A stretch of 64,000 nt of DNA from contig NC_134030.1 in assembly GCF_964204645.1 (NCBI RefSeq), positions 16,306,110 through 16,370,109 of the forward strand, written 5' to 3'. Both the position numbers and the translations under genes were made by a program. Shown here in pieces: positions 1 to 45,039 of the stretch. Below the pieces are notes generated by a model. That model was not told the origin of the DNA, did no database searches, and worked only from the letters and a program-made list of their open reading frames with translations. This DNA comes from Tubulanus polymorphus. Lineage: Eukaryota > Animalia > Nemertea. Each line of letters starts with the position of its first letter. Positions within the stretch are counted from its first letter, which is position 1.

Positions 1-1022
1 CTCTCTATTATAACTGCCTATTGCAATTATACTAGTAGCATCTGTGCCACATTTTATATTCAGTTGAATGAGGAGTACCTCATTTGAATATTGATCGAAC
101 GTGCTCTTTCAGTTGAAAAGGATTGATCAATTTCATCACAAAAGAACATCTGTTGCAAAAGGTGGAATATAGACCGCATAGGACTTCTCACTAGAAACAC
201 AATTAGGAGTTTATAGTTATAAATGTAAGTACTGTTTTTGTTGTTATTAAGACGCCGGGAAACGTTAAACATGTTTCAGTGTATTAATCTATATTTGAAA
301 ACTACAACTTCAAGTTAGTTTTATTCTACGCTAGATATTTATCTTTTAGATAACAAAATGCTACGCGTAACAAGAAGACCATTGCTACTTGAACCAAGAA
401 AGTGAAGATAGGAGGATGTGGAATCAGAAATTATGGATATTTCAACTCATGAGACTGTAGCAGTTTAGCCATACTGTATAGACTTTCAATGCATTACGTT
501 TGCCGGAATTTCAATTGCGTCATTCAGCTGTTGTTAATGTTGCAGTGACAGATGTTGTATTATACTTTATTGATTTCTGCATTCCGCGCATACCTTACCG
601 CTCGGCTCCCGAGCGGCTTGGAATGTGGAAATCGATACTGACTGTATAAAATATATGTGTTTATATAATAGTAATTCCATCAGTCGTTTGTTTGAATTGA
701 TTTTCAGTATGAGGATTTATTATCGAGGATCCGAAATGACTTATCTGGACAATTAATTGCTCCTATAGATAGACTATAGTAGTGAGATAATCTAAAGCCT
801 AATTTAAATGAAATATATTAGAAATCACATACCTTCAACTAGCCATTATTTCTATTTTAATATTTTTCAAAATCTAATATTTCTTTTCAAAAAGAGAATA
901 CTTTATATTTTGATAAGATTCGAATAGAATTTCTTTAACTTAACTAAGCTAGTATTTAAAATTCATTAACTTAACTAGCTAGTATTAAAATATATTTTTC
1001 TTGCTTTTTCTCTCTATTATAA

Positions 1023-1619
1023 ATGTCAAAGAAATCTAATAAGAATAGTATTGATATTGAAAAAACCTTAGATGATTTTGGCATTAGTGATAATAAAGAT
1101 ACAGTTGTTTCTAATTGTATTCAAAATGATAATATTGATTATGAATACTATTTGATGTGTAAGCATCATCTTGAATTACTAATTGCTGGCGGGAAATCTA
1201 AAGAATTCTTGGGAAAAATTGTAACTTATCAAGAACTAGATGCTATGAAGCCAGATAAAGTAATAAAACATTTCAAAATATATGAAGAAGCTAGATTGGC
1301 CCGAATAAATGATTCTATTTCTGATGGTATTATAAAATGTTATTCTAAATTATGTAACCGGATAATACCAATTGAAGATGAAAATAAATTATATAGTGAT
1401 TTGAAAAATGACTATTTAGTTATGACAGAATTACAGAAATGGGTTGGATACGCTTCATTTCAATTAGGTGGAATAATGACATTAATTTCTGCTGGAGCTA
1501 TAACATTTTCTAACATTAAACCTTTAGTATGTAAAGATAATAAATCAGAAGATGGTGCCGTATGGCACCCACACTGTGATATTGAATCAGAACAAAAATT
1601 AACTAAAATAAATGAGTGA
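1023..1619 (+). CDS. Polinton-like element protein of unknown function with C-terminal hydrophobic segment (198 aa)
   Basis: Intact ORF with TAAATG start; hydrophobic stretch GYASFQLGGIMTLISAGAITF. Confidence 0.7.
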   Translation: MSKKSNKNSIDIEKTLDDFGISDNKDTVVSNCIQNDNIDYEYYLMCKHHLELLIAGGKSKEFLGKIVTYQELDAMKPDKVIKHFKIYEEARLARINDSISDGIIKCYSKLCNRIIPIEDENKLYSDLKNDYLVMTELQKWVGYASFQLGGIMTLISAGAITFSNIKPLVCKDNKSEDGAVWHPHCDIESEQKLTKINE

Positions 1620-1962
1620 TGATATTAAGAAAAAGGCTAGATCTGAGAAACAAATTAAATGGGCTAGGGAATTAGGTAAAAGATCTGCAGAATTAAAAAA
1701 AGCTAAGAAAAAGTAATTAACTGATATAAATGAATCACCTGATATTAATTCAAATAACAATCCATCTGATTCTTCTAATAGTGGAAGAAATAATTACTTA
1801 TATATTACAATTGGGTTAATCGCAGTTATTGTATACTCCGGTGTAATATATAAATCAAAATTTAATAACAATAATGATTCCGATGATAAACCTATTATAC
1901 CAGAAAATAAGTCAAATGATAAAATCATTGAAACTAAATCTGAATTATTATTAATGAATTAA
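1612..1962 (+). pseudogene. Small protein with basic N-terminus and one TM helix, one internal stop
   Basis: Reads MSDDIKKKARSEKQIKWARELGKRSAELKKAKKK*LTD...YLYITIGLIAVIVYSGVIY...LLMN*; TAAATG start overlapping the end of the previous ORF. Confidence 0.6.
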
Positions 1963-1973
1963 AATAAAATTAA

Positions 1974-3050
1974 ATGAAAAAAAGAACAATATTTAAGAGA
2001 TTTATATTATAACCCAGAGAGTGAAGTATCATATTCTAGTGTTACAGAATTATGGGATAAAATTAAATCTGATAAAGAAAATGTAAAATATAGTTAGTTA
2101 AAATTATGGTTACAAAATCAACCAACATATCAAATCCATAAGAAAATGGATAAAAATTATTTAACAAGAAAAGTTATGGTTTCACATATCGATCAACAAT
2201 GGCAAGCTGATTTAATTGACATGAAGAACTTAGAAGAATACAACAAAGGATATTTCTGGATATTAAATGTTATAGACATATTCAGTAGATACGCATGGTC
2301 AATTCCAATCAAAAATACAACTGGAATAGAAGTAACAAATGCTTTTAAGACTATATTTAAAGAAGCTATTCCAGGTAAGATACAATTCGATGAAGGTTAG
2401 GAATTCTATAACAAACATTTAAAAAAACTATTATCTGATAACGATGTAGAACATTTTTCAACACACTCAGATAAAAAAGCATCTATTATAGAAAGATTTA
2501 ATAAAACATTGAAAACTAGAATGTGGAAATATTTTACTGCAAATGAAACATATAAATATATCGATGTGTTAGATGATTTGGTGAAAGGTTATAATAATTC
2601 TAAACATAGTTCTATAAGTATGAAACCTATACAAGCTAGTAAAGAAGATAATTCAGAAATAGTTTGGAATAATTTATATGAAGCATTTGTTACACATGAT
2701 TTTGGAGAACCAAAATTTAAATAGGGCAACAAGTTAGAATATCTAAATATAGAAAAACCTTTTATAAAGGTTATACCCCTAATTTTACTGAAGAAATATT
2801 CAAGATTAAAAAGATAATATTAACTAAACCTTTTGTTTATAAATTAGAAGATTTAAAAGATGAAGAAATATTAGGTTATTTCTATGAACAAGAATTATCA
2901 CTTGTACCAAATCCAGATGAAATAGAATACAAAATAGAAAAAGTATTGAAAACAAAAACTCTTAAAGGAAAAAAGTATTCTTTGCTGAAATATAAAGGGT
3001 ATGATGATAAATTTAATGAATGGATTTTATCTAGTAAAAAGAATAAATGA
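1974..3050 (+). pseudogene. Polinton-type retroviral-like (rve) integrase with C-terminal chromodomain
   Basis: Motifs LYYNP, WQADLIDM, VIDIFSRYAW, IQFDEG*EF, ERFNKTLK, YNNSKHSSI and chromodomain YKIEKVLK...KYKGYDDKFNEW. Two in-frame stops and two frameshifts. Confidence 0.93.
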
Positions 3051-3639
3051 ATAAAGATTTATTTATATTTGAACTGGGGTAACCAACTGTGGTAAAACGC
3101 ATTTCATATTAGACTTGTTAGAAACTATTTATAAGAATCATTTTGATAATATAATATTATTCTGCCCCACTTATGAAATGAATAAAACATATAATAGGGA
3201 TAAAGTTATGATAAAAAAATTTATTATATTAGATCCTAAAACAGTAAAAGAAAATTTAGATAAATGTATTAAAATAGCAATTGATATTTATAAAGGTTCA
3301 AATACATTATTCATTATAGATGATTGTGCAAATTTACATGATTCAAAAGTGAGAGAAAGTGAGTTATGCTATCTAGCTTTCTCTGGGAGACATTTTGGGA
3401 TAACAACATGGGTTTTAAATCAAAAATATAATTCAATTGTTAAAGATTTTAGGGAGAATATAAGATTTTTAGTTTTATTTAATAACAAAGATAGAAAATC
3501 TATGCAACAATTATTGGAAGAAAATCAAATTATACCTACTGAATTACATGATGAATATATGAATAAATTAAAGAATAGTAAAGGTTCAAAATTACTTCTG
3601 AGACTACGATTTCCCTATGAATATAAATTTATAAATTAA
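3047..3639 (+). pseudogene. A32/FtsK-like genome packaging ATPase
   Basis: Walker A GVTNCGKT in frame just upstream of the 3115 ORF; Walker B LFIIDD; GRH and NQ motifs. Frameshift near the TAAATG start. Confidence 0.88.
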
Positions 3640-3661
3640 AATTTGAAATATTATAGAAACT

Positions 3662-3777
3662 ATTTATACATCTATGTACTAGACGTACGAGTAAGAATCC
3701 AAGATTCTTGCCAAGATAGTAAGAAAGTTAGAATTCTTGGATTCTTACTCGTACATCTAGTACATAGATATATAAAT
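3662..3777. repeat. Inverted repeat hairpin A (43-bp arms)
   Basis: 3662-3704 pairs with 3735-3777 at 41/43 positions. Confidence 0.9.
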
Positions 3778-3914
3778 TATTAAATGAAATATATAATAAT
3801 GAATAAATTATATATTAAAACTATGTTTATAATTTATGTTTATAATTTATGTTTACACAGGGGTACAAATATATATATATATATATATAATTTATATGTA
3901 GAATAATTATTCTG

Positions 3915-4006
3915 AAACTGTTTATATATCTATGTACTAGACGTAAGAGTAAGAATTCTTACCAAGATTCTTACGTACGTCTAGTATATAGGTATATAAA
4001 TAGTTT
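3915..4006. repeat. Inverted repeat hairpin B, paralogous to hairpin A
   Basis: Shares TCTATGTACTAGACGTA.GAGTAAGAAT with hairpin A; arms 3915-3956 and 3967-4006. Confidence 0.88.
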
Positions 4007-4014
4007 TATAATAA

Positions 4015-5207
4015 TCATTCTAATTTTGTTTCTAATACATTTATAAAATCATCTTTGTTTATATCTAATTCACCATAACTCTTAAGTAGATTTATTAATT
4101 CTATTCGAGTCATCTTTAAACGAAAATTAGTAGGTATATTAGCTTCTTTTCTTAATTTTTCAAAGTATTCATCAAAATCATCAAAATCAAAATGATATCC
4201 AAAATTTTTTATTAGATAACTTAAATCTATTTTTCTCGAATATAATAATTTACATATTTGTTCAGGATTATCTTCTGCATAAACTAATAATTTATCAAAT
4301 AACAGCTTATAGAATATATAATATTGTTTAGTTTTAGGGTTAAAATATTTGATATATTTCTTTGGGTTATTTAACAATGGTATCGTACTCGCCATTTTAT
4401 AAACATTAATTAGATGTAATTTTGATTTATAATGAGTATTTTCATCAACAGGTTCAATTTTCTTATTACAATATTGACACGTTTTATTTCTTTCTATTTC
4501 TTCTAATTTCTTTTCATGTTCTTCTAACACCCTTTCATTTTCTACTATATGCGCTTTAGATTTTTTATGTTTAGAAAAACTACTTTTAGAAATATCTAAA
4601 TTACAAATGTTACAATGTTTTTAGAATCATCAATTATTTCATTATCTGTTATATCATTATAATTACTTTCAATTGGGTTAACATTATTTATTACATTATC
4701 TGTTATATTATCTATGGTATCATTAGTTTCAATTGTATAAACATTATTTATTAAATTATCTATTATATTATTATCAGATATATAATTATCATTATTATTC
4801 TTTTCTTTTTCTACATGTTTCTTTGATTTCTTATGTGATGCCCAATTTTTATATGATATATATTTCTTACATAAGTCACAATATTTTTCATTCGTCATTT
4901 TGGTTTGATATCAGATTTAACTTTTATATCATTATTAGATGTAGAAGGTATAATATCTATATTTTCATTATTATAAGATGTAGAATCAATATTATCTTCT
5001 ATTTTAGATTCAATATTATCTTCTATTTTAGGTTCAATATTCTCTTCTATTTTTGTTTCAATATTATTATCTATTTTACTTATTCTATATTTGAATTGAT
5101 TAAAGTATTCTCCAAAATACTTCCTGTATTCATCATAAGGTATTATATAATATATATCTGGTATCATTTCAATTGGACTTTGTATTTCATATATTCCTCT
5201 CTTCCAT
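4015..5207 (-). pseudogene. Multi-C2H2 (U1/matrin-like) zinc-finger protein, frameshifted
   Basis: Three CxxC...HxKSKxH fingers (CDLC..HKKSKKH, CNIC..HKKSKAH, CQYC..HYKSKLH). The join at ~4620 needs a 1-nt shift in an A-run. Fusion with the upstream 4895-5207 frame is inferred. Confidence 0.65.
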
Positions 5208-5239
5208 TTATTATAAAAAGTTGTATTAAAATTAAAATT

Positions 5240-6374
5240 CTAATACATAACACTATTTAATTGAGAATTTACAATATTTAATTGCGCGTCAGATATAATA
5301 TAAATGTGTATTTTGAAATTTTTGATTCCTTTCTTCTTTTTCATGAATAATTGTATCCCATCTTTAGTATTCTGTAATTTTTTTCCAGAACCATGTAATG
5401 AATTATCCTCTGTTGTTCTAAAATCTAACCATAATGCATATTTATTACCGGTATAATAATCAATTTGATTAATATTACAATTTTCAGATGATTTTACTTT
5501 TTCATTCCTAAAATGTTTTCTAATTTCTGGCCATTGATCTATCATTGTCATTCCTTGACAAAATATTTTATTTGCTATACCTTCGATAGTTATTTATACT
5601 TTTGTTTTTTCAGGATTATAATAATTATCGACCTGTATTGCGCCATTAGAATATGTTGCAATGGTAAAAAATATCAATATACCTTTAATAGATCTTCTTG
5701 GGAAGTTAATATTCTCATTAATAATTTCATCACTTGCATTAATAGTTACAGTTTTAAATTTATCAATATAATCATATAATAATGAAAATCCTTGAGTTTG
5801 AATTATACTTGAAATATTTTCATCAGTTACTGTATTATATTCTAAACTTATATTCGATAACCCATATCTTTAACAACGCTAGATAATACAATTTCATTAA
5901 CAGGAGCAAATGTTATTTCGAATATAATATCTTCTTGAATTGCGTATTTATATAAAGGTGCATTATTATTTATCAATTCAAAATCTAATGGAATTTTATG
6001 TTTGCTTCCATAAATCTTTTTGATCAAATTATCTGCGGTACGAGTTGCTACTATTGCGTCAATAATATAATCATATCATCATATCATATAACTGTTTCTG
6101 GGCCAATCTTTATAGTTAATTTTTTAATCAAATATCTTCCAACATTATCAACAACATAATTATTATTATTACCAGTTACATTTATACCAGCTGATAAATA
6201 AAAACTATTTGGAACATAAAAAGTATTTTGTGTTAATCGAGGGATTCTAACATATAAAGTTTCATCAGGATTAATATTAGAAGGGTTATGAGTAATTATA
6301 TGATGAGATCTTTCTGCTTTGATAGCAGTAGATATTCTAGGATTCTTAGAAGGATTTATGTAACTCCCACTCAT
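5240..6374 (-). pseudogene. Probable double jelly-roll major capsid protein (disrupted, internally deleted)
   Basis: N-terminal HNPSNINPDETLYVRIP..FYLSAGINV..LIKKLTIKIG and C-terminal YALWLDFRT..LHGSG..HIYIISDAQLNI resemble beta-rich Polinton-like MCPs; context with ATPase and penton genes. Confidence 0.7.
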
Positions 6375-6394
6375 TTATTTAACAAAAAAATTAA

Positions 6395-8121
6395 TTATCT
6401 TTTTTTTATCATATTCACTAACCCAAAAATAATTGCACTTACCACTGTTATTAAAGATAAGATAATATGTTCAGCAGCAAAGTTAAAGATGTTTCCTGCA
6501 GATTTCAATATAAAACCAACAATCGATGCTATAACTCCAGGTAAAGCTGCAGCAGATTTTTTAGTTCCCATAAATATTTTGCTAATTTTTTTAAACCATC
6601 CTTAACTTTATCTTGTATAGAATTATTATCATTTGGGGGTTTATCTGGTTTATTCGGACTTGGTGTAGATTTCAATGAATTTGATATTGCTAAACCTATT
6701 GTTGTGAATACCATAGTTACAGCTGTTAGAATTGAAAGAATTGTTATACCTTCTAACTTAAATAATAATTTTATTCTATCTTTTAATGATATTTCAGAAT
6801 CTGGTTTTATTATTAAATCTTTAAAAATAACTTTTTTAATATGATTAAGATCATATGATTTTAATAATACATCTCTCTCTTTTTCCTGTAATTCTTTGTT
6901 ATATTTTAAATCATCTATTTCTTTTTCTAAAGCTAACTTTCTGCTTTCATAATCAGCTTCCTCGATTACTTGAAGATTTTTATTTAATTCTAATTGTTTT
7001 AATTCTTCATTTGCATTAGTTAATTCTTTTTCTAACATGGTTATTTTAGAAAATCTCATCTTAATATTAGCAATTTCACCAGCTGATTCTTGCATACCTT
7101 TAATTTCTCTACGTGCTTGTTCAGGAAATGTTTCTAATTCTTCATCAGTTAAATCAAGTAATACTTTTTCTAGTAAAGATTGTATTCGATTTATTCCAGT
7201 TTCAGTACCAGATGTATCTAACATACTATTCATCTCTTCGTCCAATGAATGAACTGTATCACTTAATCTATCAATTTGTTTTTCTAATACTTACTGTAAT
7301 TGACTTGAATAATTATCAATTTGTTGAATATCTCTTCTCGATGTTTCTGGTGTTGAAGATCTTAATTTATCTAATCGATCTGCAAAATCTTCATCATTTT
7401 CTGGGTCAACAAAAGTTGGTTTTTGATTTGGATTTTTAAATGGTGAATAATTGTTAATATCAATATTCGGAATTGGTTCTTTTTCATTTATTCTATCGAG
7501 TGCATACCATATAATTCTGAGTAATTCTCTACCGCCTTTTGAACCTTCAATTGTAGATCTTGCTCACATTTCAGGATGGTACACATCTTTTTGCCCCATT
7601 TTAGATAATTGAATTGATACAGTTTTGTTATTTAATTCAACATTATAAAACCATGTATCATTTTTAAATTTTAAATTATTCATGAATTGTGGATCATCTT
7701 TTCTAATTTGTTCTGAAATATCTTCTGGTTCAATGTTATATGTTATATTTTTTGGTAATAATTCTTCAATAACTGTATTTGTTACACTATGTTTTATGTA
7801 TAATAATTCATTTTCCAATTTAGGGTTTTTTGTTTTTTCTAATCTATCAATTAACTCTTTTCTTTCTGGTCTAGTTTTAATTATTATCTTATCGCGGGTT
7901 CTTAAATAATCTATTAATTTTTCACTTGTTTTAGTATCATCTTTAAATTCATCATAATCATATAATATAGGCCCACTAGAATCATCTTCATCATTATTTA
8001 AATTAGAATTAAATGCTGATCCATCATCATTATCAATATTATTTTCATTAAAATCAGGTTGTGGTTCATCACTTATACCAGGGGCGTCACCAAAAGTATC
8101 CATTGGAATATCTTCTTCCAT
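6395..8121 (-). pseudogene. Large acidic/coiled-coil protein with C-terminal hydrophobic and amphipathic helices (~575 aa reconstructed)
   Basis: ORFs 7564-8121 and 6529-7245 are in the same frame, joined across two stops. A frameshift near 6565 gives KSAAALPGVIASIVGFILKSAGNIFNFAAEHIILSLITVVSAIIFGLV. Confidence 0.7.
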
Positions 8122-8136
8122 TTATCTAATAAAAAA

Positions 8137-9490
8137 TTAAAATTTAAAATATAATATTCCTCCTATTACAATTCCTATACAAGTTATAGCTAATTTAGCA
8201 TTTTCATGGGATTTATTATCATTGTCAGTTTTAATTATGTCATGTTGAATATTATCAGTTTTTATATCACTGTGTGGGTGCCGTACGGCACCATTTTCTG
8301 TAGTATTGTAATCTTTTATTTTAGAATCATTATTTATTTTTGATATTCTCAGTTTTAGTATCTGTTGATTGAATATGTTTTTTAATTTTTATACCTTCCA
8401 TTAATTTTGGAGCAGTTATAATCTTTTTATTTATATCATTCAATCCAAATGAATTATTTATTGTTGCAGTCTTGATTAAATTATTATAACCAATTATATT
8501 TCCCATTTTTAATATTAAATCATCAGAAATAATTGATAGATTAGGGCCTATACAATAATTTAATCTAATGTGTGATTTATCTAAATAATTTTGATATCTT
8601 ACAATGATTTCTGGAATCGATCTATTTTTATCATTATGAATGGAATCTTCAAATAAAACTTGAAATTGTTTTTGTGTATCAAATGAAGTATTACCATTTC
8701 CAACTATTGGTGATCTTGTTTCAACTTGGGCACCTAGAATACATATCAAATAAGTTCTAATAGATTGATTTATTCCTTGTATTCCAGCTTTAGTAAAACC
8801 TTGACTATTTTCTAAAATAAAATTAATCCAACCATTATTGTTTTGTTGTTGTATATTATTAAAATATTTTGGTAATTCATTCCAATTAAGTGTTCTTATA
8901 TCTGTATTTGTTATTATTTTACCAAATTCTTTAGTATATAATATTCCTAATCCACCCATTGTACCAATTTTTGCTCTAAAATCATTATTTGAATTAATAT
9001 TAAATTCATTACATATTTTATGAAACTTAGAAAAATTAATATTATCATTTAGTTCATTAAAATATTTTGAACCTGGTAAAGGACATTCTAATTCATTCAA
9101 TATTAATTTTATTTGAAAATAAGTATGAAATCTAAAAAGTGATAAAATCAATGGTAAGCTTGGTTCGTTTAAATGATCATTCCAACTTATACCACAGCCT
9201 GTTGTTGCGCAATAAACAGCAAAATTTAATTGGTTATGCCAATACTTGATATTAGATTTTAATAACCATTGTTTTGCCTCATTTAAATTTTTAAAATTAA
9301 TTACGTAAACATTGAATATATTTTCCATCTTTACATTAAAATTATTACTTTCAGTAACATAGATATCTAAATTAATTAATGAATTTAAAACTTCATTTCT
9401 ATATGAAATATCTTTATTAAAATCAATTGCAGGAATATTATATTTAATTGATTTATTATATTGAAAAGCTTTTGGAAAACTATCTACCAT
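8137..9490 (-). pseudogene. Polinton-like element protein with C-terminal TM anchor (one frameshift near 8335)
   Basis: 386-aa ORF (WHNQLNFAVYCATTGCG) continues in another frame to AKLAITCIGIVIGGILYFKF*. Confidence 0.7.
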
Positions 9491-9506
9491 TTATATAATT
9501 AAAAAA

Positions 9507-9931
9507 TTAATAATTTGTTAATTGTTTTAATAATTTATCTTGTTCTTCAACTGTTATATTACCATTTAAACTTATTATATAATCTAGTGTATTTTTTAAT
9601 TTATTAATTTCTTTTATATTAGTTTTAATTTTTTCTTTATTACTTTTTATATTTAATTTTGAACTTATACCAGTTAAAACACTTGATAACCCTAACACAC
9701 CAATTGATATAGCTAAAGGTATTAATGGACTGAATATTGCTAGAAATGTTATTACAGAACTAATTGTAACTGAACCACTGATAATAAAATAATATAAAAT
9801 TCTACTTTTTAAATATTTTTTATCTTTAAGTCACTTTCAAATTCTAATATTTGTTTTACTAAATATGTTTTTAATTTAGTTTTATTTATATCATGAGGAA
9901 TAATATCAATATTATCAACTTTATCATCCAT
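9507..9931 (-). pseudogene. Two-TM-helix protein with coiled-coil tail, frameshifted
   Basis: MDDKVDNID start at TAAATG; ILYYFIISGSVTISSVITFLAIFSPLIPLAISIGVLGLSSVLTGI hydrophobic hairpin. Confidence 0.6.
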
Positions 9932-10345
9932 TTATTTAGCAAAAAAAATTATAACAATAACTGTTCCACCTAAAATCCAAATTATTTCATATTTCTGTTG
10001 TTCTTTACTTGGGGTATAATAATCTGATGATTTAGGTTTGTATAGACGTAATTTTTCTTTATTTGTTACTGCGTTATACAAACTCATTGCATCATCGACT
10101 GATTGAAAATCTCTATGTGAAATCTTCTGATCATATAATTCTTTATTGATGTAATCCATATAGTTTTGTCTTTTTTCTCTATATTCTTCTGCAGCTTTGT
10201 TATATTTTTCTAATGCTAAGCTATGTCTTTTTTGTTCTGATAATGAACCATTTTTATCAATATGCTTAAATAAATAACCACCACCTGTAAATGCTAAAGC
10301 GTTAACAATTGCCGATCCTATAATAGTTATAATTGCAGAAGCCAT
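9932..10345 (-). CDS. Membrane protein with N- and C-terminal hydrophobic segments (137 aa)
   Basis: Intact ORF: MASAIITIIGSAIVNALAFTGGGYLF ... IIWILGGTVIVIIFFAK. Confidence 0.75.
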   Translation of the reverse strand: MASAIITIIGSAIVNALAFTGGGYLFKHIDKNGSLSEQKRHSLALEKYNKAAEEYREKRQNYMDYINKELYDQKISHRDFQSVDDAMSLYNAVTNKEKLRLYKPKSSDYYTPSKEQQKYEIIWILGGTVIVIIFFAK

Positions 10346-10361
10346 TTATTTAGTAAAATAA

Positions 10362-10592
10362 TTATACATTTATATAGGAGGAATATATTTTTGTTTTTTC
10401 CAAATAATCAATAGTTAAATTAGATAAAGTAACTGCTAATGTTAATTTTAAAATATCATTTATATCAAATCTATCAACATTAACACTTCCCATTTTAAAT
10501 ACTTTTTTTAATACAATTGAATAACCAACAGTTCCAACTGATAATAATGCTCCATTATATAATCCAGTTATTATCCACTTATTACCACTCAT
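10362..10592 (-). CDS. Small hydrophobic protein (76 aa)
   Basis: Intact ORF with TAAATG start and two hydrophobic segments. Confidence 0.65.
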   Translation of the reverse strand: MSGNKWIITGLYNGALLSVGTVGYSIVLKKVFKMGSVNVDRFDINDILKLTLAVTLSNLTIDYLEKTKIYSSYINV

Positions 10593-10949
10593 TTATTTAT
10601 CAAAAAAATTACTATCTTCAAAATATTTATTTATCTTAGTTATGATTATTTCAACATTTATAGTATTATTAGTTTCATTTTCATATATTTCAGTTATTAT
10701 TCTTTTAATATCATCAATGATAAAATCTTCATCTAATTCATAAAATCTTAAAGATTCTCTGATTAAATTAGTAATCTTTTTTACATTTAAAGTTTCTTTA
10801 TCTATTGTTTTTTCATACTCAAATGTTGTTTCATTAGAAAATGCAATATTTTTAATATGTGTAATTACATCAGTAATGTTAAATTTCATTTCTTTCTCAT
10901 GTTTAAAATCGAATCCAAAACATATACTCGGCCCAACAGTTATATTCAT
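10593..10949 (-). CDS. Hypothetical protein (118 aa)
   Basis: Intact ORF with T-run + TAAATG start; its stop abuts the next ATG. Confidence 0.6.
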   Translation of the reverse strand: MNITVGPSICFGFDFKHEKEMKFNITDVITHIKNIAFSNETTFEYEKTIDKETLNVKKITNLIRESLRFYELDEDFIIDDIKRIITEIYENETNNTINVEIIITKINKYFEDSNFFDK

Positions 10950-10965
10950 TTATATAGTGAAAAAA

Positions 10966-11698
10966 TTATTCTCTACATCTTATAACTAATTCATATATCA
11001 CAGGAAAATTATTTAAATCAATTAAATATCCATTATGATTTCTAATTTCTAATCTGAAATTATTAAAATGAGGAATGCATGGTTTGAAATCACATTCTGT
11101 TAAATTATAATTTATTTGAGTTCCAAATTGTTTAACATTTCTTAGCGGTAAAATATTTAGTATACTAGAACTACAAATTGTTTCTTTAGTTGCTTCGAAG
11201 GTTTTTGTAGGATCGATTAAATTGCAATGAATATAAAAGTGTGTAAAAGGTATTATATTTGAGATGCCTTCTGCGTTTCCGGTAACTGTAAGCGGTTTAA
11301 TTCCTAACATTTTAGCCATTGGTTTGTTTACCATAAATTTATGTTGTTCATTAGATATCTTTATTCTTATTTTATTAGTACTATCAATTTTATTAAATTT
11401 AATTTCAAATACAGAAGTGCCCCCGATTTTCAACCGAGCTCTTCTATTAATTTCCTGCGCTAATGATTCTAAATTATATAATTCTAAATTATATATTTCT
11501 CATATAAATCATAAACCCTCTATGTTCAAAAGTTTTATCCGATATATCATAAAAAGAATTACATAAACTTACATTTACTAATTTTAAATCAACACAATTC
11601 TTAAATTCTCTATCTAATTGTACTAGTAAATTATGTCATTTATAATTTGTAAGTCTTCTTGAATCAACAAATATTCTATATTCTTTTAATTCTACCAT
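10966..11698 (-). pseudogene. Probable single jelly-roll minor capsid (penton) protein
   Basis: N-terminus IFVDSR..VQLDREFKN..LKL..NSFYDI and C-terminus HFYIHCNLI..SILNILPL..FRLEIRNHNGYLIDLNNFPVIYELVI resemble Polinton penton motifs. Stop and frameshift in the 5' third. Confidence 0.72.
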
Positions 11699-11712
11699 TT
11701 ATTTTACATATT

Positions 11713-12066
11713 TTATTCAAAATCTATTTCATGGTGCCCTTTTTCATTCTTACCTTTATATATGAAATAGAAATCACCTGAACATAATTCTTCTAAATCT
11801 TCACTTGATAATCTATGAAATCTATCTGGTAAATATGTTCTGAATTTATATGTACTTCCTTTTAATCCTTCACATTCTAAGTGGATAACTAATTTATCTC
11901 CATATTTGTTAGTAACTGTATCAATATTTGTAATTAGATATTTATTATGAATTGTTAATTCTGTTAACTTTTTGAATTTATAATCTACAGATTTTACATT
12001 TGTGATATCTTTAATTCTATCTAGAAATGATTTGTTGTTCTCAGTGTGTACTTGTTTACTCTCCAT
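11713..12066 (-). CDS. Putative OB-fold ssDNA-binding-like protein (117 aa)
   Basis: Intact ORF; pattern KKLTEL..KYLI....TNKYGDKLVIHL...YLPDRF...FIYKG suggests a small beta-barrel. Fold assignment is inference. Confidence 0.5.
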   Translation of the reverse strand: MESKQVHTENNKSFLDRIKDITNVKSVDYKFKKLTELTIHNKYLITNIDTVTNKYGDKLVIHLECEGLKGSTYKFRTYLPDRFHRLSSEDLEELCSGDFYFIYKGKNEKGHHEIDFE

Positions 12067-12127
12067 TTTAATATCAAATTTTTTATTAAAACTGATTTTA
12101 GAATTCTAGATTAATATTTTAAGAGTT

Positions 12128-12265
12128 ATAGGGAATATGTTGTTCTAGATTAAAGGTTGAGAGGTTGAGTGAGTAGAAAAATAAATTCGAGTGTGCGAGA
12201 ATTTATTTTTCATTTTTTACTCACTCGACCTTTCGACCTTTGATCTAGAACAACATATTCCCTAT
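12128..12265. repeat. Long inverted repeat near the right end of the Polinton-like element
   Basis: 48-bp outer stem (12128-12175/12218-12265, 4 mismatches) plus a perfect 13-bp inner stem. Confidence 0.9.
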
Positions 12266-15200
12266 TACTAGCATGATTATGAATGACAAGTTTTATAAAA
12301 GTACTAAGTAAGATATGTGATTATGAAATAATCGATTATCATATGAAAATTAAGAATTAGAAACTAAAATATGATTATGAATTAATTATAATAACGGTTT
12401 CGTATTTTAGTGATTAAGATAAGCAATAATAATACGTATTATTCTAGGTACAAATATGAATATTTACATAACACAAGCGTTTAGATTGGTTATATAGATA
12501 TACGCTTTAATCAATTACACGTAGTTAAGTTTTAGTTAATTGAAAGCTAATATAAAGTTTGAGTTTAGAATTTAAGATCTAATATAAATCGTATAATAGG
12601 CCTAAAGACTCTAAAAATATAACAGAATCTGAATATGGCTTACCTGAAATTCGATTGACGACAAACCAATTATGAATTTGATGTCTGTATTTGACGAGAG
12701 CATGAGTAGTCCGAATGACCAAGCCAGGCCTGAGCTGGACATCTTTGACTCAAGCTCCACCGCAAACAAGTTCGGGGTCAGGGCACATATCATTGGTCAT
12801 CATATCATTAGCCATCAGACTCAAAAATCTGACAGGAGACCTAAGTAAATAACACTAAACAAACTGTGAGCCTCGGGTTAATCATTAATTGACTCCGAAG
12901 TTAAGTTTGGCTAATTCTAAGATTTTAGAGACGAATGGCATGCAAACATCCTGTCACTCGTAACAAAGGGTTGCCTACCATATTGCATAAAGATGATAAT
13001 AGAAAGTGAATAAAACTATATTTGGAGAAAAAAAAATGAATATGACATATGTAATCTTTCTTTTTAATCTTTTCTTTCTTTTAAAATTTTGTAGTGTATT
13101 TCCATATCCATTATGACACTGTTTCGATAAAGATGAATTTTGAAAAAGCAGCGCACCATTCTGCACCCTTCTGCGTAAAGACTTTCGTCCGCGAAAGTTT
13201 ATCAAAAATCACAAGTGAAAATTATACAGTGTACGAAATACATAAAACAATAAAACACTGCAAGACTCCGAAAAAGAACGAAGCAGAGACCAGGCAGTAT
13301 ATACGTACACGAAATAAATCGCTGCAGACAGCCGAATGACAAAAAAGAGAATCTTAATAATACATTACACAATTTGATAAGTGCTATATATTGCACGAGA
13401 AAAACAACCGTAAAGGTGACTGTCATAATTGGAATGTCCATGATATCAGTTGCGTTGGATCCACGATTCAGTTATACAATTTCATGTTCTGTCTCATTGC
13501 TTGAGGTAGAAGCAATGCTTGAGTTGACCCACATTTTTTTATGAATTTTAAACGTCGAGGTGTCGTGGGCAGTACAATAGCTCTATCCTGGTGGTAAAAA
13601 GTAAAGCCTGCCTAAAAAGTCACTGGAGAATAAAGAATTCGTCTGATCGAGCGATCTTATGAATTGGAATAAGAAATTTGCTAAGGTATCGACGAGGATT
13701 TGTCGTTCAGAGTGGTAATCACATAAAATTCGTCCAGTCCGTCACTAGATAGGGACGCAGTCAACCTGCAACCAAAATGTCACCAAACTGGGGTAAGACA
13801 ACATTCACCACAATGGACTGCTGCGATGACAGTCCTGAAACTTTGGCAAATTCGATGGTTTTGGTTGTGGATATTCAAAACTGTGGAGCCAATACTCTTC
13901 GCCTTGGCTAATGTCTCCACTTTCACTCAGCACAAATCCACAACTAATAGGCTGCTCGAAGACCCCAAATCCCATTGTCACATAAAGAGCAGGAACCAGA
14001 ACATCAGTTGGTAACTTGGGAAAGATAAGACAAAAAATCGGGATCAGGAAGCGAAAAAATGGATGATCAGACCAAATAGCAGTGAGCCACAGAAACCGAA
14101 AGTCAATCTCATCAGAATGGCAACCGAAAGAAACAGGTATGAGTTCATAGCGTTATGATGAGGGGTAAGAGCGCTGTCTAACAGAAACCTAAAATAGCGA
14201 TATCTTTCATATTTTCTTCGACCTTTTTGGGCACAAAACTTGCAGGAAACTTGCAGGAAATATCTTTTACCTGTGATTTCAGCTATCACAAGTTAGAACG
14301 AAATAGAAAGACTTGCCGGTACAACACGACGTTTCGGTGCGATAATGAATTAAATTTAGCCTAACATTAGGCTAACTAGCTTTTCTGGTTGTTTGAAACT
14401 GTCATTATGTTGATGAATCATCCTAACGATGATTTAGGCGAGTTCTTTGCGCTGATTTTGGTTCTATGGCATTCTATGGCATTGCATTTAGGTTCTTAGA
14501 ACTTCACGGGGTGTTGTTAAAACCCTTGATTCACTTTACATTTGGGATACAAAATCCATTAATTACGATAACAGTTCACTTACCAACATATTTCTGATAC
14601 CGTGCGATGATTTTAATGATTGAAAATTGGACCAGGTGACAATCAAAATTGCATTGTCACCATGTCCGTAGGCCTACGGTATTTAAATCGTTTAATTCGG
14701 ATCGGTTATGTAAACTCCGGATTTTCACATATTTCGGACTAAAATTCATGTCCCTTGACTAGGTAATTATTTATGTTCAAATGAGAACACGATATTCACA
14801 TCTCGTTCAATTGCGAGATTTCGGCCGATCCTCAGCTCGCTGGTGAATTTTCGATCAACCTTAGAGCAAGCCTACACATATAACTGTTGTATTAATAAAT
14901 CAATACATTTTATCTAAATTATTCAGTTGTTGTTTATTTAGGCCTATATATTTTTGCTATATTTTTTAGTCCTTATGAATCCGTAAATCAACATTATGAG
15001 TTTTCCGGTTTGCTCGGCTACCCGTACTGGCGGGGTAGTCTAGATAGGCAAATGAAAGCTCCGGTTTGCTGAACTACCCCTCTTTGCGGGGATGCGGTAT
15101 GATGTTTGATCTGACAGTTTCAAGTGGTTAATGGGTGTTTCAAGTGCTTACAACGATGCTTATTACTTAATGTGGTACATGGTGGTTTAAAAAAAGATTT

Positions 15201-15547
15201 CATAATAATACGCTCAAAGTATAGACCTACCGCGTGGGCTTCGTAGAAAGACCACTGCCTGTGGCCTTCCCAAATTTTAATTGTTCTGTCCGATTTGGTT
15301 TCGTCCAATCGAAAGACTGCCTTAGGTTAGGGCATTTTTGGATCACATCACTCAGGAAATGACTTACGCTTTTGGGCCCTTTCGTCGGTCCCACGTGTTT
15401 CATTTGAGCTATAGACCACAATGGTGACACCATGATGGTCAGAAACTGACCAATTGAGATATTCCCGAGTCTGAACACCTGACTGCGAATTTCGGAAATT
15501 TATCAAGTCATGTTTGTTTTCAAACTACCGAGGTATCATCATTGCAA

Positions 15548-15935
15548 ATTCATAAATTGACCATCACTGACCACCACTGACCAATTCAAACTTCTCGAAT
15601 ATGAGTTCGATATACCGCGTTATGGCGTCAAACTAGAAATGATTCGCCATAAATGTTGAGAATTCATAAATTGACCATCACTGACCACCACTGACCAATT
15701 CAAACTTCTCGAATATGAGAACGATATACCGCGTTATGGTGTCAAACTAGAAAGGATTCGCCATTGAAAATTCATGAATTGACCATCACTGACCACCACT
15801 GACCAATTGAAACTTCTCGAATGTAAGAAAGATATACCGGTACCGCATTTGGTGTGAAACTAGAAAGCATTCCCCATTAGAATTCATAAATTGACCATCA
15901 CTGACCACCACTGCCCAAGTGGAACTTCTCGAATA
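15548..15935 (+). repeat. Tandem array of ~110-bp units (about 3.5 copies)
   Basis: AATTCATAAATTGACCATCACTGACCACCACTG-type unit starts at ~15548, 15661, 15770 and 15881. Confidence 0.9.
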
Positions 15936-18474
15936 TCGTCGAATTCGAAAGTGGTTGTCGTCGTATTGTTATTTCTAGAGACCAGCAGTATGTTTTGCTA
16001 CTGTTTCTGAATGGCGTTGACATGATGGAAATATATTACTCCTAAATAGGTTACACATCTGGATCACAGCACCTCACTTGCCGCAGTGCGTTATTTTGAC
16101 TGCATAGTAATGCTAATACATAACCTTTTTTACTACTTGACTCAAAGCTTGACGCGAATCATCTGAACAGTACTGCGTTTGAAAACGAATAGAAAATGTT
16201 TGCGAGAAGCACCTGCAAATAAGTTATGATAAGATTAAATCTATGGTTAATCGATGCTTAAAAAAACAATTAAATCACAGGCAAGATGACTAACAACCGT
16301 CTTTCAACCAATCAGCACGATGCCAATTAATTAAATCATTAAACGCATTAGGCTCCTAATATTTGTAATCATTTGTCGTGCTTTAAACTTGGCCACTTTT
16401 GTTTCAGAAAACTGCGTACTAGACCAGTGGTCACCAAGGCATTAAAAAAGTTTTGAAAATTCGATGGTAACGATTTGTCCGTCAAAAAACTGTTTAGTTA
16501 ATATTTCAAGTTTTTTTAAACTCTTGTACAGAATTCACTATATGAAAAGTATTCATAGGAATTGAAATTCGGTGTGATATCAGTCACCTGTTACCCCTTT
16601 TTCATTGTCAGTTCTTTATTGCACTATCATGCGCTCTTCTAAAATAGAAAAGAACATGTGTTTCGTTATAAACAAGGTTAAATTCCAAACGCACATGAAA
16701 TATCACACAATATACACATCTAGCATTTTCTCTAACTAGGCCCTTTCCAAATGGCAATTGTTTAGTTTTTTAACGGCCGACATTCAGAGGTACCTAAAAA
16801 CCAGTGGTAGCGCTTGAGATTTTCAGTGTAGGCCACATCTCACATCGACTCAGCTCGCAGTCGGTTCGTTTAATGGGAACACATCTGGTTGACACTAGTT
16901 TCACAGTTGACGAAATCAGAAAACTTTTTTCAAATGCCTTTGATAACATCTTAAACATAGTATTCTTCTTAATTACATTTCGTTGATTCCATAGATATGT
17001 TTTTATGAAAATTGCTCCAGTTATAACGGATTCAAACATACATGTGAAATCATTATTTTCAAAATATTCAATTTTCTCCGCTTTTGAAGAAATTCTGACA
17101 CAATATCATCTCCACTCGACACCTGATTTTACTTTGGCACCTTTATGGGAGTGTCCCTTAAAGTTGAGTTCTTACTTAGTCAAACAAGGAGATATGCCTG
17201 ATTCCTTTTTAAAATTTAGATTTCGACAGATATCATCAAATTACTAGAAAGGGACAGCAGTGTTCGGTCATCCACGAAAAATACCTAAAATGCAGTCCTA
17301 GGGTTATGGAAAAACAGGACACGAAACATACAGAAAGATCCTTTGTTTGGTTGACTGAAATTATTATTGAACTCTTAAATAGCGACATTTAGAGAAACAA
17401 AAACATAAGAATATAATCTCGCCCACCCGTTAAAAATCATAACGTAATGATATGAGGCCATGTGTCATCTTTAATTGAAATCACATTATATTCATTCTCA
17501 TGCGAGGATGGGTCTCCAAATTCATAGGATAAGGAGAATAATGGGTTTGAATGATGAATACAACTGATAAAGCGCCAATTTCACTGATTCTTGCATATAA
17601 TGCTCAAAGGCGCTTTACAGTAATCGAGTAAACAGGTGCGTTTTTAGGAGTCTTTTGAATTTGAATTCAAATCGGGTGTTCATGACGACTATAATTGAGC
17701 ATTCTAGGGCTGGAGCAAGAAACGTGTGGGATCGTCCGCCAAGGTATCGCTAAGGAGTCAGTCCGTGTCGGCTTTTGAAAGCGACGACCGCATATGAATG
17801 CATTGATTGAATGACATCTTAAAAGTCAGATTATATAAAATTAAACATGATATACGGATAGGTTCTTCCAATTAGGCCTATACTGGTAAAAATGAAATGA
17901 CCCAATATGTGATATAAATGTTCAATCAAAAAGTAGAAAGTGAATCCGTAATTCAGTATGGTAGGCCTATTGTTACGACATCAAACACTCAAATTCAATC
18001 CTTTGTTGAATTGGTAGCCAGTGTAGATGAGCAAGTATCGTGGTCCCTGATTTTAGTTATCGTAATAATTCAAGCCACGCGATGTTGAACTGTTCAACAA
18101 GTTGGAGTTTGTGTAAAGATGAATGAGTTTGAAATGGAGTGGACTTCAGATATTACTGTTTGCATGCCTATGTCTATTATTTAATCTTTTTACTAATCAT
18201 AGAAAATTGTGGTAAAATATTTGACTCGACGGTTGGTTTTAGATTGTATCTCTCCAAGCCAGAGGTAATCACGGATATCGGACTACAAAAAAATTCCTTG
18301 TGTAAAGCTCAACTTCGTAAATTCCTGGAAAAGCTCGCCTCGGATATTTCAATAATGATTAAACATTAATTTTCCCAACGAAAAACCTAAACAACCAATG
18401 TACGCTTGCTTTAAGTTTACCAATGCACTATCGTTGCTTTTTCTAGCTATTTGTACTGTTTGCCGCAAAAAGAT

Positions 18475-18839
18475 TGTAGTTTATGTTTGTATTATGGTCA
18501 TATTTCTGGCAGTTCTACTGCTCATGATCAACCTAGTGTGTAAGTTACTCATGTGTGAAATTGTATAAAGTCTGGTGATCTGGTGATCTGTGGGTATTGA
18601 ATTTTTATATTTGTGTGTACTGACGTTGTGGCTGCTACATGATTTAATACTCTTAAATGTTCTGTAAGTTATTTGTTATTAGCCGAATTTCTTGTTATTA
18701 TTATAATATTTGTGTGTTAATTTAGTTGTTGTTTCTTGTTTAGAAACGGCTTCGATGGTAATGATGATAATAAATGTAAGACGTCAGTTTGACATTGAGA
18801 GATCTGCGACTTCGTAAATTTTCGTGTTTGGAGTCTACA
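18475..18839 (+). repeat. 5' LTR of BEL/Pao element (365 bp)
   Basis: TG...CA ends; direct repeat of 24440-24571 plus 25759-25988. Confidence 0.95.
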
Positions 18840-18866
18840 TTGGTTTAGAACAATTGTAAGAAGAAG

Positions 18867-20625
18867 ATGTCTGTCGACGGAAAGAGTAAGCCACACGGCG
18901 ATGATTTAGAAACATTGAAACGATCCAGAGCTGGATATAAAGCCGCGCTCACTAAGAAAAGAAATGAGTTAAGGGATATGTTAAAGAAGAATCTCTCCAG
19001 CTGATGAAGTGAACGCTGCTTTGTTAAGAATTGATGAAGCCTGGAAAAAATTCGAAAATGCCCACCAAGTCGTGCATGACTCACTGTTAGATGATGAAGA
19101 AATCGAAGCGTCATTTGTTTGTTTCGATACGAAAGAAAATCTCACATGTAATTTGCGTTTAAAAACAAATCAATATCTAATGGTCAAAGCACCTAGTTTT
19201 ACGCCGAAAGCACAGGCATCGCAGCCGTCTAGCCCGGACAATTCATTAAGCAGAAATCCACAGAGTTCCGGTACTGATCCTGGACTGCAGTTGATGATAG
19301 AAAATATGGTTCGTATGTCGCTGCCCAAACCAGAAATGCCTATTTTCTCTGGCGATGTCACGGAGTACTGTTACTTTATCCGCGCTTTCGAAAATCTGAT
19401 AGAAGCGAAAACTGTAAACAATAGCGAGCGATTGTATTTCCTTACCCAATATACAAAGGGAGATGCACACGAGTTAGTAAAAAGCTGTTTACCCAAAGAT
19501 CCAGCCGTGGGTTATCCAGAAGCCAGGCAACTTTTGCTGACACGTTATGGTGATAGTTATCGAATCGCAACTACGTTAGTTGATCGCGTAATCAACGGCC
19601 CGCTTATCAAATCGGAAGATGGAGAGTCATTGTTGAAATTTTCTGTAGCCTTGACAAGTTGTAAAAATACGTTGGAACAAATTGGATACTTGAGCAAAAT
19701 AGAGAATCCAGATAATCTGAGAAAGCTAATTGGTCGTTTACCATTTGAAATTAGAAAAAAATGGCGCGTAAAGGCAGACTATATTACGCAGTTCGAATTT
19801 CGAGAAATAACTCTCGCTGATATAAGCAAATTCGTAGAAAATGAAGCACGAATCATTAATCATCCAGTTTTCGGCAATATCACTGATGGTCAAAAAAGGT
19901 CGCAGCAAAATAAATTCGCAAAATCGTTTTACAGCAGATCGAGTGATGTCAAGCGCGAGGACAATACATTTTCACCACAGGGATTAGGCCACAAATCTTG
20001 TAGTATATGTCAGGCCGAACATGCGTTGACCGATTGTGCAGTCTTCAAAGCCAAATCGTATGAAGAGCGACGCAATTTCGTCAGAGACAAAGGTTTGTGC
20101 TTTAACTGTTTAATCCCTCGTCATCGAGCCAGGAATTGTTGGACGGCAACACAGTGCGCAATCTGCCGTGACGGAAAGCATTCAACATTGTTATATATTA
20201 ATAAATTCGACAATGGTGGTGACCGCGGTAGTAGCTCATCGGACAATACAAAGTCACAAGTGCATAATGCCTTTATAAGAGAATCGGAGAAATTGGTTGG
20301 TCTTCCTATTGTTCCGGTGAAATTGAGATCTAATGAGAATGACGTCGTTCTTACTTATGCGCTTTTGGATACGGGTTCGAATTCGACGTTTTGTACTGAA
20401 GATTTGATGTATCGTCTTGGCGTTGGAACCAGAAAAACTCGACTTTCTTTGACGACTATGGAACGAGAAAAAATTCCGATTGATTGTCATGTATTAAGCT
20501 TTGAAGTTTACGATTTGAACGAGACGTATATGATAGAGCTAACGAATGTGTACTCTCGCCCATACCTACCTGTATCGAAAGATGATATTCCTCGTCAAGA
20601 AGATGTTGAGGATGGCGACACATGA
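18867..20625 (+). pseudogene. BEL/Pao gag (DUF1759-like, CCHC knuckles) and aspartic protease
   Basis: FSGD..Y..F..AF, LYFL.QYTKG, CSIC..H..C, CFNCL..H..C, CAIC..H and ALLDTGS. Frameshift near 19000 after the ATG at 18867. Confidence 0.92.
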
Positions 20626-20718
20626 ATGGTATTGTACTACCCCAGATTGACGCGGAAATTGGCCTTTTAATCGGGAATGACAACAGCGTAGCATTGGAAC
20701 CATCTGAAATAAGAAGAA

Positions 20719-23700: not shown

Positions 23701-24168
23701 TCCACTTTAATGTGTGAGGTGGAAGCTGTTATTAACAGTCGGCCTATAACTGCTGTTTCAGATGATCCGTTAGATTTAGAAGCTCTTACGCCCAATCACT
23801 TGTTGTTACTGAGAGCTGGCTCAACTTTACCCCCCGGTATATTTCAAGCACGTGATCTTACATCAGGAAACGTTGGCGCCAGGTTCAGTACATGGCTGAT
23901 GTATTTTGGCGGCGATGGACTCGGGAATATTTGCCATCGTTGCAGCAGCGTCAGAAATGGTTTCATACGCAACGAAACTTCTGTAGGTGATCTTGTTATA
24001 GTATCAAATGAGCAACTGCCCCGCGCCCAATGGCCTTTGGGTCGTGTCATTGAAGTGCATCCAGGTTCAGATGGTGTTGTGCGAAGTGCTAAAATAAAAA
24101 CCCGCTCTTCTCCATCACTTATACGTCCAGTTAATAAGTGCGTTATGCTGGAACGAGCAGTGGAATAA
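20719..24168 (+). pseudogene. BEL/Pao pol (RT, RNase H, integrase)
   Basis: WYLPHH, RVVFDCSA, GDIEGMFHQV, FYVDD, HHFSDAS, IPRLEL, GVDFFGP, SDNGTNF, GGVWER, WPLGRV. Compensating frameshifts around 23865-23980. Confidence 0.95.
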
Positions 24169-24439
24169 GTAATGGAATAAGTAATGTACGTTTGAATAGA
24201 TTATACATTAAGGATTACAGTATGGTTCTTTATCTAATGTGTAATATTATTATAACTTCTGTTTATGATGTATAATTATTTGTGTTGGTATATTAGTTTG
24301 CTCACTAGTTATGTCGGTATGTAACATATTATTTGTCCGTGGTACACGTATTATTCAGTTTTGTGACGTTAAGTAAATTTATAAGACTATAAAATCTAAG
24401 TTAAATTTTAGTTAACTTTAGTATTTTATGGGCCGGGAA

Positions 24440-28652: not shown

Positions 28653-29132
28653 CACAGGGGTTTGGCGATGGGCTTGGATTTTATTTCCGGGTTGTTGATA
28701 ATCTCGCGAGAATGGTGCTAAACATGAACTGCGAATAAATTCAAAATATCACGGAAATACCTTGTGTTTATATTGTTTATTTATCCGCTATAAAGTTCTG
28801 ATAAACAATTGGCCGTTAAGGATCATTATCAGACGGTCGTCACGCTTTACTATATAAAATCACAAGGGATGAAACGCCAGGCCTCCGCTGTACTTAAATT
28901 TTCAGCCAGAAAGTTGGGACCGTGATTTTACATAGTAAAGCGTGACGACCGTCTGATAATGATCCTTAACGACCAGTTGTTTATCGAAACTTCATAGCGG
29001 ATAAATGAACAATATAAACACAAGGTATTTCCGTGATATTTTGAATTTATTCGCAGTTCATATTTAGCGCCATTCTCGCGAGATTATCAACAACCCGGAA
29101 ATAAAATCCAAGCCCATCGCCAAACCCCTGTG
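28653..29132. mobile_element. Foldback-type MITE with ~210-bp TIRs and 8-bp TSD
   Basis: CACAGGGGTTTGGCGATGG...CCATCGCCAAACCCCTGTG, flanked by GCCGCAAA on both sides. Confidence 0.93.
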
Positions 29133-44954: not shown

Positions 44955-45039
44955 GTAAAATAACGATAAGATCATAGATATTGTGATTCATTGAAAAAGC
45001 GTTCTCGATTCTCGAACAGATTATGATAAGTCTATTATG

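Follow-up and report, generated by a model that had tools for sequence, protein, structure and literature searches.

The locus examined here raises two questions: whether the AT-rich, gene-dense stretch near the left end of a 64,000-nt segment of the Tubulanus polymorphus genome (positions 16,306,110-16,370,109 of NC_134030.1, assembly GCF_964204645.1; hereafter, the window, in which all coordinates below are given) is a compact Polinton-like virus, as the original prediction had it, and which transcription machinery would read its genes. We assign a probability of about 0.5 to the reading that the element is a dead, truncated copy of a protease-less virus of the Polinton-3_NV type and that its subfamily likely consists of virophages read by the late machinery of a poxvirus-type helper. 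Taken by itself, the poxvirus-type identity of the helper, which is suggested by the sequences around the start codons, is a close call that we place just short of even. It is an open question whether the Polintons of animals are nuclear viruses that act on their own or virophages in need of a helper; according to a recent preprint, virions of animal Maverick-Polintons have yet to be observed (bioRxiv 10.64898/2026.06.19.733378). The promoter signature described below, which the original prediction did not include and which is a more unusual feature than the gene set, names a candidate type of helper and, if the reading is true, points to poxvirus-like viruses in hosts for which none have been recorded.

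Relatives of the element were collected by a metagenome profile scan with an alignment of its 386-amino acid (aa) open reading frame (ORF), in which 117 of 121 homologous sequences were aligned; of the 480 candidate stretches, 288 were confirmed and 80 loci were kept (denoted by L-numbers). A GTDB scan added one contig, for a total of 81 loci; this contig (L081), 2.3 kb long and assigned to a bacterial metagenome-assembled genome, carries a homolog of the ~440-aa gene described below and is likely a contamination. Four loci are 70-81% identical to the window element at the DNA level. The most useful one, L002 (11,483 bp), contains orthologs of nearly all window genes, mostly intact, on a contig with open ends.

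When the 13 start codons of the element that are set by homology to relatives were compared with the background, 12 were found to be embedded in TAAATG; the corresponding share of all ATGs is 38 of 431 within the element (p = 3e-12) and 58 of 1,992 elsewhere in the window. The starts at 4898 and 5167/5207, which have no homolog, were excluded. A T is present at position −10 in 8 of the 12 TAAATG starts, and seven consecutive genes (6374-10949) have five to six Ts at positions −8 to −13. Two subclades of the relatives show the same pattern. In L001-L004, TAAATG is found at 21 of the 24 family starts, with T at −10 in 20 of the 21 compared to 25 of the 58 other TAAATG sites. Another 17 loci form a second group, with TAAATG at 79 of the 87 starts; of these 79, 72 have T at −11, compared to 30 of the 89 other sites (L010, near-identical to L009, was left out of this group; L022, L030 and L032 were added by their share of the motif, not by the tree; L008, with 3/3 TAAATG starts, is in neither group). 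The TAA of the motif is the stop codon of an upstream ORF in only 1 of the 21 and 4 of the 79 cases, so that the motif is not due to gene packing.

In vaccinia virus, late promoters have TAAAT overlapping the start codon, in most cases with G as the next base, and a conserved T 10 nt upstream among further Ts, as described in PMC11980589; on this basis, the starts of the element appear to match the poxvirus late-promoter pattern. A further candidate signature, a shortage of the vaccinia early terminator TTTTTNT within coding sequence, was dropped as not specific (7 vs. 13.6 expected and 35 vs. 40.9 expected in the motif clades, 21 vs. 29.1 in controls). The poxvirus-type promoter wiring of the subfamily looks new: no report of TAAATG or late-promoter wiring of Polintons was found by title or abstract start, in a search with most of the subscription literature outside its coverage; the word 'promoter' is absent from the main texts of PMC11296320, PMC8502044, PMC4642659 and two 2026 bioRxiv preprints, and 'TAAATG' is likewise absent from the main text of PMC11296320.

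The same starts could belong to an autonomous nuclear Polinton-like virus, with TAAATG and the T-run serving as an initiator for the host polymerase or as a translation context that arose convergently in AT-rich members, with no helper. Indeed, the motif partly tracks low GC: without selection of loci, TAAATG starts number 22/33, 98/134 and 1/248 in the GC classes, that is, 120 of 167 below 42% GC and 1 of 248 above. Furthermore, the integrase and chromodomain imply a nuclear stage, the motif-bearing L009 and L010 encode their own pPolB, and polintovirus genes are reported to be expressed by corals (PMC11131425). However, nine other low-GC loci have TAAATG at only 3 of 37 starts (including 0/11 in L027 and 0/4 in L062). 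A nearly invariant hexamer with a T at a fixed distance is also tighter than the start contexts of animal genes, which counts against the nuclear explanation. Moreover, mavirus, which has both pPolB and integrase, nevertheless needs a helper (PMC6428243). We consider a nuclear origin of the pattern possible, but less likely than the helper reading.

If there is a helper, it need not be a true poxvirus; another large DNA virus of the cytoplasm could take this role, as could a linear cytoplasmic element that has a poxvirus-like polymerase. The yeast pGKL elements, according to PMC6211774, use a vaccinia-like TAAAN initiator and end their transcripts at stem-loops, which implies that the motif marks a polymerase lineage and not strictly Poxviridae; in addition, a literature search on marine-invertebrate poxviruses gave, by its listing, nothing on point. 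On the other hand, the upstream T at −10 is described for the late promoters of orthopoxviruses (PMC11980589), and no helper of this other kind was found either, so this version seems rather improbable.

Several observations weigh against the reading of the subfamily as poxvirus-dependent virophages. On the trees of the ~440-aa protein, the major capsid protein (MCP) and the ATPase (quick trees with midpoint roots, of family members only), members without the motif stand between the two groups that have it, and the motif is confined to AT-rich members. In the second clade, the T peak falls at −11 and misses the vaccinia consensus by one base. No T-run precedes the starts of the integrase, ATPase and penton genes; these starts resemble, as a lead only and judging from the start sequences, the intermediate promoters of vaccinia, which have TAAA without the upstream T (PMC11980589). 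The orthologous genes counted across close relatives are not independent. L006 and L012 encode a VLTF3-like late factor and do not have TAAATG starts. No helper virus, particle or transcript was found, nor was an RNA polymerase subunit in the window or in the scanned accessory ORFs, and no relative was found in IMG/VR with the 386-aa ORF, its alignment, the L002 MCP or the ATPase alignment as queries. The provirus resides in the nucleus and a poxviral polymerase in the cytoplasm, and the helper reading does not explain how the two would come together. Finally, the closest relatives, including L002 (11.5 kb, open ends), show no replicase, so that the loss of a replicase is deduced from more distant loci.

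Under the virophage reading, intact members would integrate through the RVE integrase, and full-length members would carry a replicase, either pPolB or a helicase, as in the more distant relatives. The provirus would stay silent in the chromosome until the cell is infected by a cytoplasmic helper whose RNA polymerase is poxvirus-like, and the late polymerase of that helper would express the genes of the element during co-infection, as modelled on mavirus and CroV. Transcripts would end at the hairpins between the convergent gene blocks, and particles would assemble without a maturation protease. Virophages have the late promoter of their helper (PMC6428243), and Polinton-like viruses (PLVs) travel with entomopoxviruses, as noted in PMC11296320. 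Similar to mavirus-type virophages and entomopoxvirus PLVs, the window family has an integrase, a provirus state and, putatively, the late promoter of a helper; unlike these, it has a different MCP lineage and no known helper. A broader proposal is that a widespread invertebrate Polinton-like subfamily consists of virophages of poxvirus-type viruses, with every gene, including pPolB where present, on a late promoter, the wiring having arisen or been kept in two clades, and with the chromosomal copies being the footprint of an undiscovered invertebrate poxvirus-like virus and possibly an inherited defence; this we hold tentatively, with the odds somewhat against it.

The second question, whether the element is a complete compact genome, depends on its ends and gene content, which are as follows.

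721-12269: remnant of a Polinton-like virus (Polinton-3_NV-like family), delimited by GC, read depth and loose read ends at 721; left end truncated, right end likely a natural terminus
726-817 (+): family-internal intergenic sequence at the left break (blastn, 80% over 93 nt to L002:2451-2539, E 8e-16)
1023-1619 (+): protein of unknown function, 198 aa, conserved (matches in 20 of 80 loci), no Pfam match; TAAATG start
1612-1962 (+): small predicted membrane protein (tblastn to L002:9951-10340, E 5e-8), one stop; TAAATG start
1974-3050 (+): RVE integrase ending in a chromodomain; frame interrupted by three stops and, near 2721, by a frameshift; TAAATG without T-run
3047-3639 (+): A32-family packaging ATPase, frame broken between 3047 and 3073; TAAATG without T-run
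3662-4045: pair of related hairpins at the meeting point of the convergent blocks (arms 3662-3704/3735-3777 and 3876-3945/3976-4045)
4015-5239 (−): variable region; three ORF pieces, which carry low-complexity repeats as well as zinc-finger-like motifs; over 4001-5000, the read depth is low, at 25-29 (run X5, see below)
5240-6374 (−): double jelly-roll MCP in four pieces (stops, two frame changes, ~33 codons missing); TAAATG and T-run
6395-8121 (−): conserved coiled-coil and membrane protein, function unassigned, in four pieces; 485 aa in L002; C-terminal pieces match 35 and 40 of 80 loci
8137-9490 (−): conserved ~440-aa protein, function unassigned, including the 386-aa open frame; frame change near the C-terminus; best family marker
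9507-9931 (−): frameshifted gene for a protein with two transmembrane segments and a weak likeness to SLATT (the L002 ortholog matches SLATT_fungal with E 0.0013, which misses the curated cut-off)
9932-10949 (−): three small intact ORFs of 137, 76 and 118 aa, functions unassigned, matched in 19, 10 and 3 of the 80 loci, respectively; all three start at TAAATG preceded by a T-run
10966-11698 (−): penton, disrupted; start at 11698 by homology, TAAATG without T-run; fold via the L003 family
11713-12066 (−): 117-aa protein, intact, function unassigned; its family is widespread, with 240 homologs at E <= 0.001; the sole homology-defined start that is not TAAATG
12124-12269: 146-nt palindrome with 62-nt arms, 87% complementary (DNA fold z −18.4), ending at the edge of the multi-copy sequence

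The ORFs are free of introns and densely packed in two convergent blocks (+ strand, 1023-3639; − strand, 4015-12066), as originally described. By contrast, the original boundaries (778 to 12600) and the notion of a compact ~12-kb genome with an atypically small gene set were not supported: the element is truncated on the left and likely carries a deletion near the right end, and other family members encode a replicase. The GC content is 0.20-0.26 in the element (~720-12270) compared to 0.35-0.45 in the flank further right. In raw reads under the same species label (X5, of which ~12% of the run was sampled, with depth counted per 500-nt bin), the depth was 25-1018 over 1001-12500 vs. 6-16 over 12501-15000; of the 38,000 placed reads, 26,889 were 90-95% alike to the window copy and 703 were at least 99% alike. 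The depth and the 90-95% likeness together indicate that tens of related copies exist and that the window copy has drifted from them.

On the left, AGTAGT at 778 was rejected as the end of the element because the alignment with the intergenic sequence of L002 (726-817) passes through this position, which is thus internal in L002. From 721, 346 X5 reads extend leftward into different, A-rich sequence. Positions 1 to ~680 of the window, adjoining the break, are occupied by a different multi-copy repeat (X5 depth ~185-480) with an abundance pattern across runs unlike that of the element. On the right, single-copy contig pieces without differences begin at 12240 and tile to 15000; these pieces, together with 31-letter words, place the edge of the repeat at 12269, that is, at the end of the palindrome, which is likely the right terminus of the virus rather than a small inserted element. 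Near this end, 416 X5 reads leave the copy behind 12103 and 586 enter it from other sequence before 12062, suggestive of an internal deletion or another arrangement. No inverted-repeat pair joining the ends of the element was detected in the window repeat and blastn comparisons; of the terminal inverted repeats that, with a 6-bp target-site duplication, belong to the classical Maverick definition, the copy offers only a likely right terminus.

When contig depths were summed and set against the single-copy flank, the element came out ~3-4x higher in X1 than in X2 and X3, a measure that does not give a copy number; conceivably, this excess is a hint of free copies or of a variable copy number. 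One short palindromic insert is present twice, at 1554-1569 and 8277-8292 (~53 nt with flanks, 81% alike), inside two different viral ORFs, the frames of which it leaves open; none of the 81 loci contains its core.

In the element, the integrase, ATPase, MCP, penton and four accessory genes are disrupted, and the copy is dead. That it is a decayed copy of a Polinton-3_NV-like element seems to us very probable, and the locus itself is ordinary, one decayed copy among many.

Neither pPolB, helicase nor protease was detected in the 64-kb window, by Pfam or by tblastn with the replicase ORFs of eight relatives (best E 0.8). Among the 19 loci of at least 7 kb, pPolB is present in L009, L010 and L069 and an SF1 (superfamily 1) helicase fusion in L060 and L078; pPolB is present in the shorter L076 as well, and in L025, L027 and L077, pieces were linked to pPolB by tblastn only. 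These distant relatives with pPolB or SF1 helicase have the same structural genes. In close relatives from a single clade, the same position behind the integrase is occupied by either the SF1 helicase fusion (L060:9279-12458, L078:8797-11034) or pPolB (L069:12597-14768). The presence of pPolB in some loci and of SF1 helicase in others indicates that the family swaps replicases, a phenomenon described for PLVs and for group 2 Polintons (bioRxiv 10.64898/2026.06.19.733378 for the latter). We think it probable that the replicase of the window element was lost by truncation or deletion.

The window element could instead represent a naturally compact, replicase-less lineage of ~12 kb that borrows the polymerase of another element or virus. 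This would fit the lack of a replicase in both the window and L002, the 11.5 kb of which carry nearly the same genes, and a weak likeness of the terminal hairpin arm to sequence just upstream of the L003 penton (blastn E 6e-4). The absence of a terminal-repeat pair, the internal position of the left edge, past which other copies run, and the difference of most copies next to the right end all argue against this possibility; furthermore, L002 is open-ended, one member of its protein cluster sits on a 16.9-kb contig, and the likeness to L003 was equalled by 40 of 500 shuffles. A compact lineage thus appears improbable compared with a truncated copy of a replicase-encoding virus.

As for the place of the element among known systems, the first and last pieces of the window MCP are identical to the Polinton-3_NV MCP in 39 of 78 and 21 of 37 residues, respectively, without gaps (50% and 57%; by eye from Fig. 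S3 of PMC4028283). Polinton-3_NV (Nematostella vectensis, Repbase) is listed in Table S1 of the same paper with 16,575 bp, MCP and ATPase present and penton and protease absent, and its MCP is grouped there with the capsid protein of PgVV. The MCP match suggests a lineage that is known, little studied and apart from the standard Mavericks; the original proposal of a distinct, poorly characterised lineage is supported with respect to the separation from standard Mavericks, and the lineage already has a named member, Polinton-3_NV. Polinton-3_NV and the window element are alike in the presence of the ATPase, the absence of the protease, the MCP (~50%) and the integration in an invertebrate genome, whereas Polinton-3_NV is 16,575 bp long and scored penton-negative, and the window family has a penton, with the window copy broken and truncated.

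With group 1/2 Mavericks (adintoviruses, Polintoviricetes), the element shares the RVE integrase, A32 ATPase, double jelly-roll MCP, penton and multi-copy presence in an animal genome, but it differs by the absence of a cysteine protease in the window copy and in the scanned ORFs of the relatives, and by the absence of pPolB in the window copy. With the animal elements near Aquintoviricetes (PgVV/Gezel, TsV-type PLVs), it shares a protease-less morphogenetic module, and the link to a PLV-type MCP clade is indirect, through the Polinton-3_NV MCP and the ranks of the penton fold matches; these PLVs, however, have a tyrosine recombinase in place of the RVE integrase. Cnidarian MCPs of the PLV type fall outside the main Maverick-Polinton cluster, according to PMC10120064; later work mentions PLV-like MCPs in Nematostella 'polintons' and, in one sentence, the proximity of some octocoral, hydrozoan and bivalve ATPases to Aquintoviruses. 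These remarks may well refer to the family of the window element.

The integrase and packaging ATPase of the original prediction were recovered by Pfam. The window integrase pieces (2098-3047) match rve with E 3e-5 and chromodomain with E 5e-4 (1.5e-10 and 1.2e-6, respectively, for the L002 integrase), and the ATPase (3073-3636), 79% identical to that of L002, matches Pox_A32 with E 3.3e-10. In L002, the integrase and ATPase are oriented relative to the MCP block opposite to the window copy. L002 also encodes a deoxynucleoside kinase (L002:10340-10981 (−), Pfam E 2e-31), a gene that the window copy does not have. Pfam scans covering 26 pieces from the window, together with 76 of the relatives' 506 ORFs (selected to represent families or as accessory ORFs; the contigs are incomplete), detected no protease family, which agrees with the protease-less gene set noted at the outset. 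The proposal that most genes have no assigned function was supported as well. PDB sequence searches gave nothing significant for the MCP, penton, 440-aa, 117-aa, 201-aa and 118-aa proteins.

Capsid folds were modelled on intact relatives, namely, the L002 MCP and the L003 penton family, not on the broken window genes. The four MCP pieces are 68-76% identical to the intact L002 MCP, the model of which (33 sequences, pLDDT 82.9) matched PBCV-1 Vp54 and an iridovirus MCP in Foldseek with E ~5e-16; the best fold matches are the capsids of nucleocytoplasmic large DNA viruses. In this relative, the predicted double jelly-roll fold of the 5240-6374 product is thus confirmed. The penton call is upheld as well: the L003-led family model (42 sequences, pLDDT 79.9) aligned with the mavirus penton with Z 12.1 (root-mean-square deviation (rmsd) 7.7, 241 aligned), with a Sputnik chain with Z 12.3, with a PBCV-1 chain with Z 14.5 (rmsd 2.9, 143 aligned), and with the mavirus minor capsid protein with E 1e-10. 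Proteins of Tetraselmis virus S1 take ranks 2 and 4 of the penton fold matches, above the adintovirus entries. Position 11639 was dropped as the penton start in favour of 11698 on homology. In the second TAAATG clade, the penton is seemingly short, ~140 aa (L010:2160-2588, with orthologs in L009, L015 and L019), a call based on a profile match to the penton family with E 6e-5 and a probability of 64%.

The hairpins at 3662-4045 are strongly folded as RNA (z −13.5; 0 of 100 shuffles equally stable) and are predicted 3'-end signals; L002 likewise has hairpins behind the ATPase (z −3.7). For the variable region (4015-5239), no homolog was found in the retrieved loci. The ~440-aa protein has 127 homologs, the best of which are 74-81% identical, and neither this protein nor the 117-aa protein has a Pfam or PDB assignment. 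A guess that the 117-aa protein is a single-stranded DNA binder was unsupported and dropped. The sister element L006 encodes a Bcl-2 family protein (Pfam E 2e-18) and a VLTF3-like late transcription factor (7430-7843 (−) and 3239-3748 (−)); the match to the late factor has E 6e-4 in L006 and E 4e-5 in L012 (3785-4279 (−)).

In the rest of the window, a possible host exon lies in a 201-aa frame at 44358-44963 (+), for which Pfam gave no match at E 0.001. The transposons listed below, like the relatives of the element, point to an invertebrate animal as the likely host. Repeats include a ~112-nt tandem array (15542-15936), a 211-nt fold-back repeat (28653-29132, 96%) and ~160-nt tandem units of a family that is dispersed and occurs in either orientation (35718-36423, 40592-40912, 55269-55760). 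Other mobile elements are represented by a BEL/Pao retrotransposon at 18472-25988, with long terminal repeat (LTR) segments 98% identical, a hAT transposase fragment (48816-49304), an endonuclease fragment of a long interspersed nuclear element (LINE; 58044-59340) and the pol region of an LTR retrotransposon (61043-63900).

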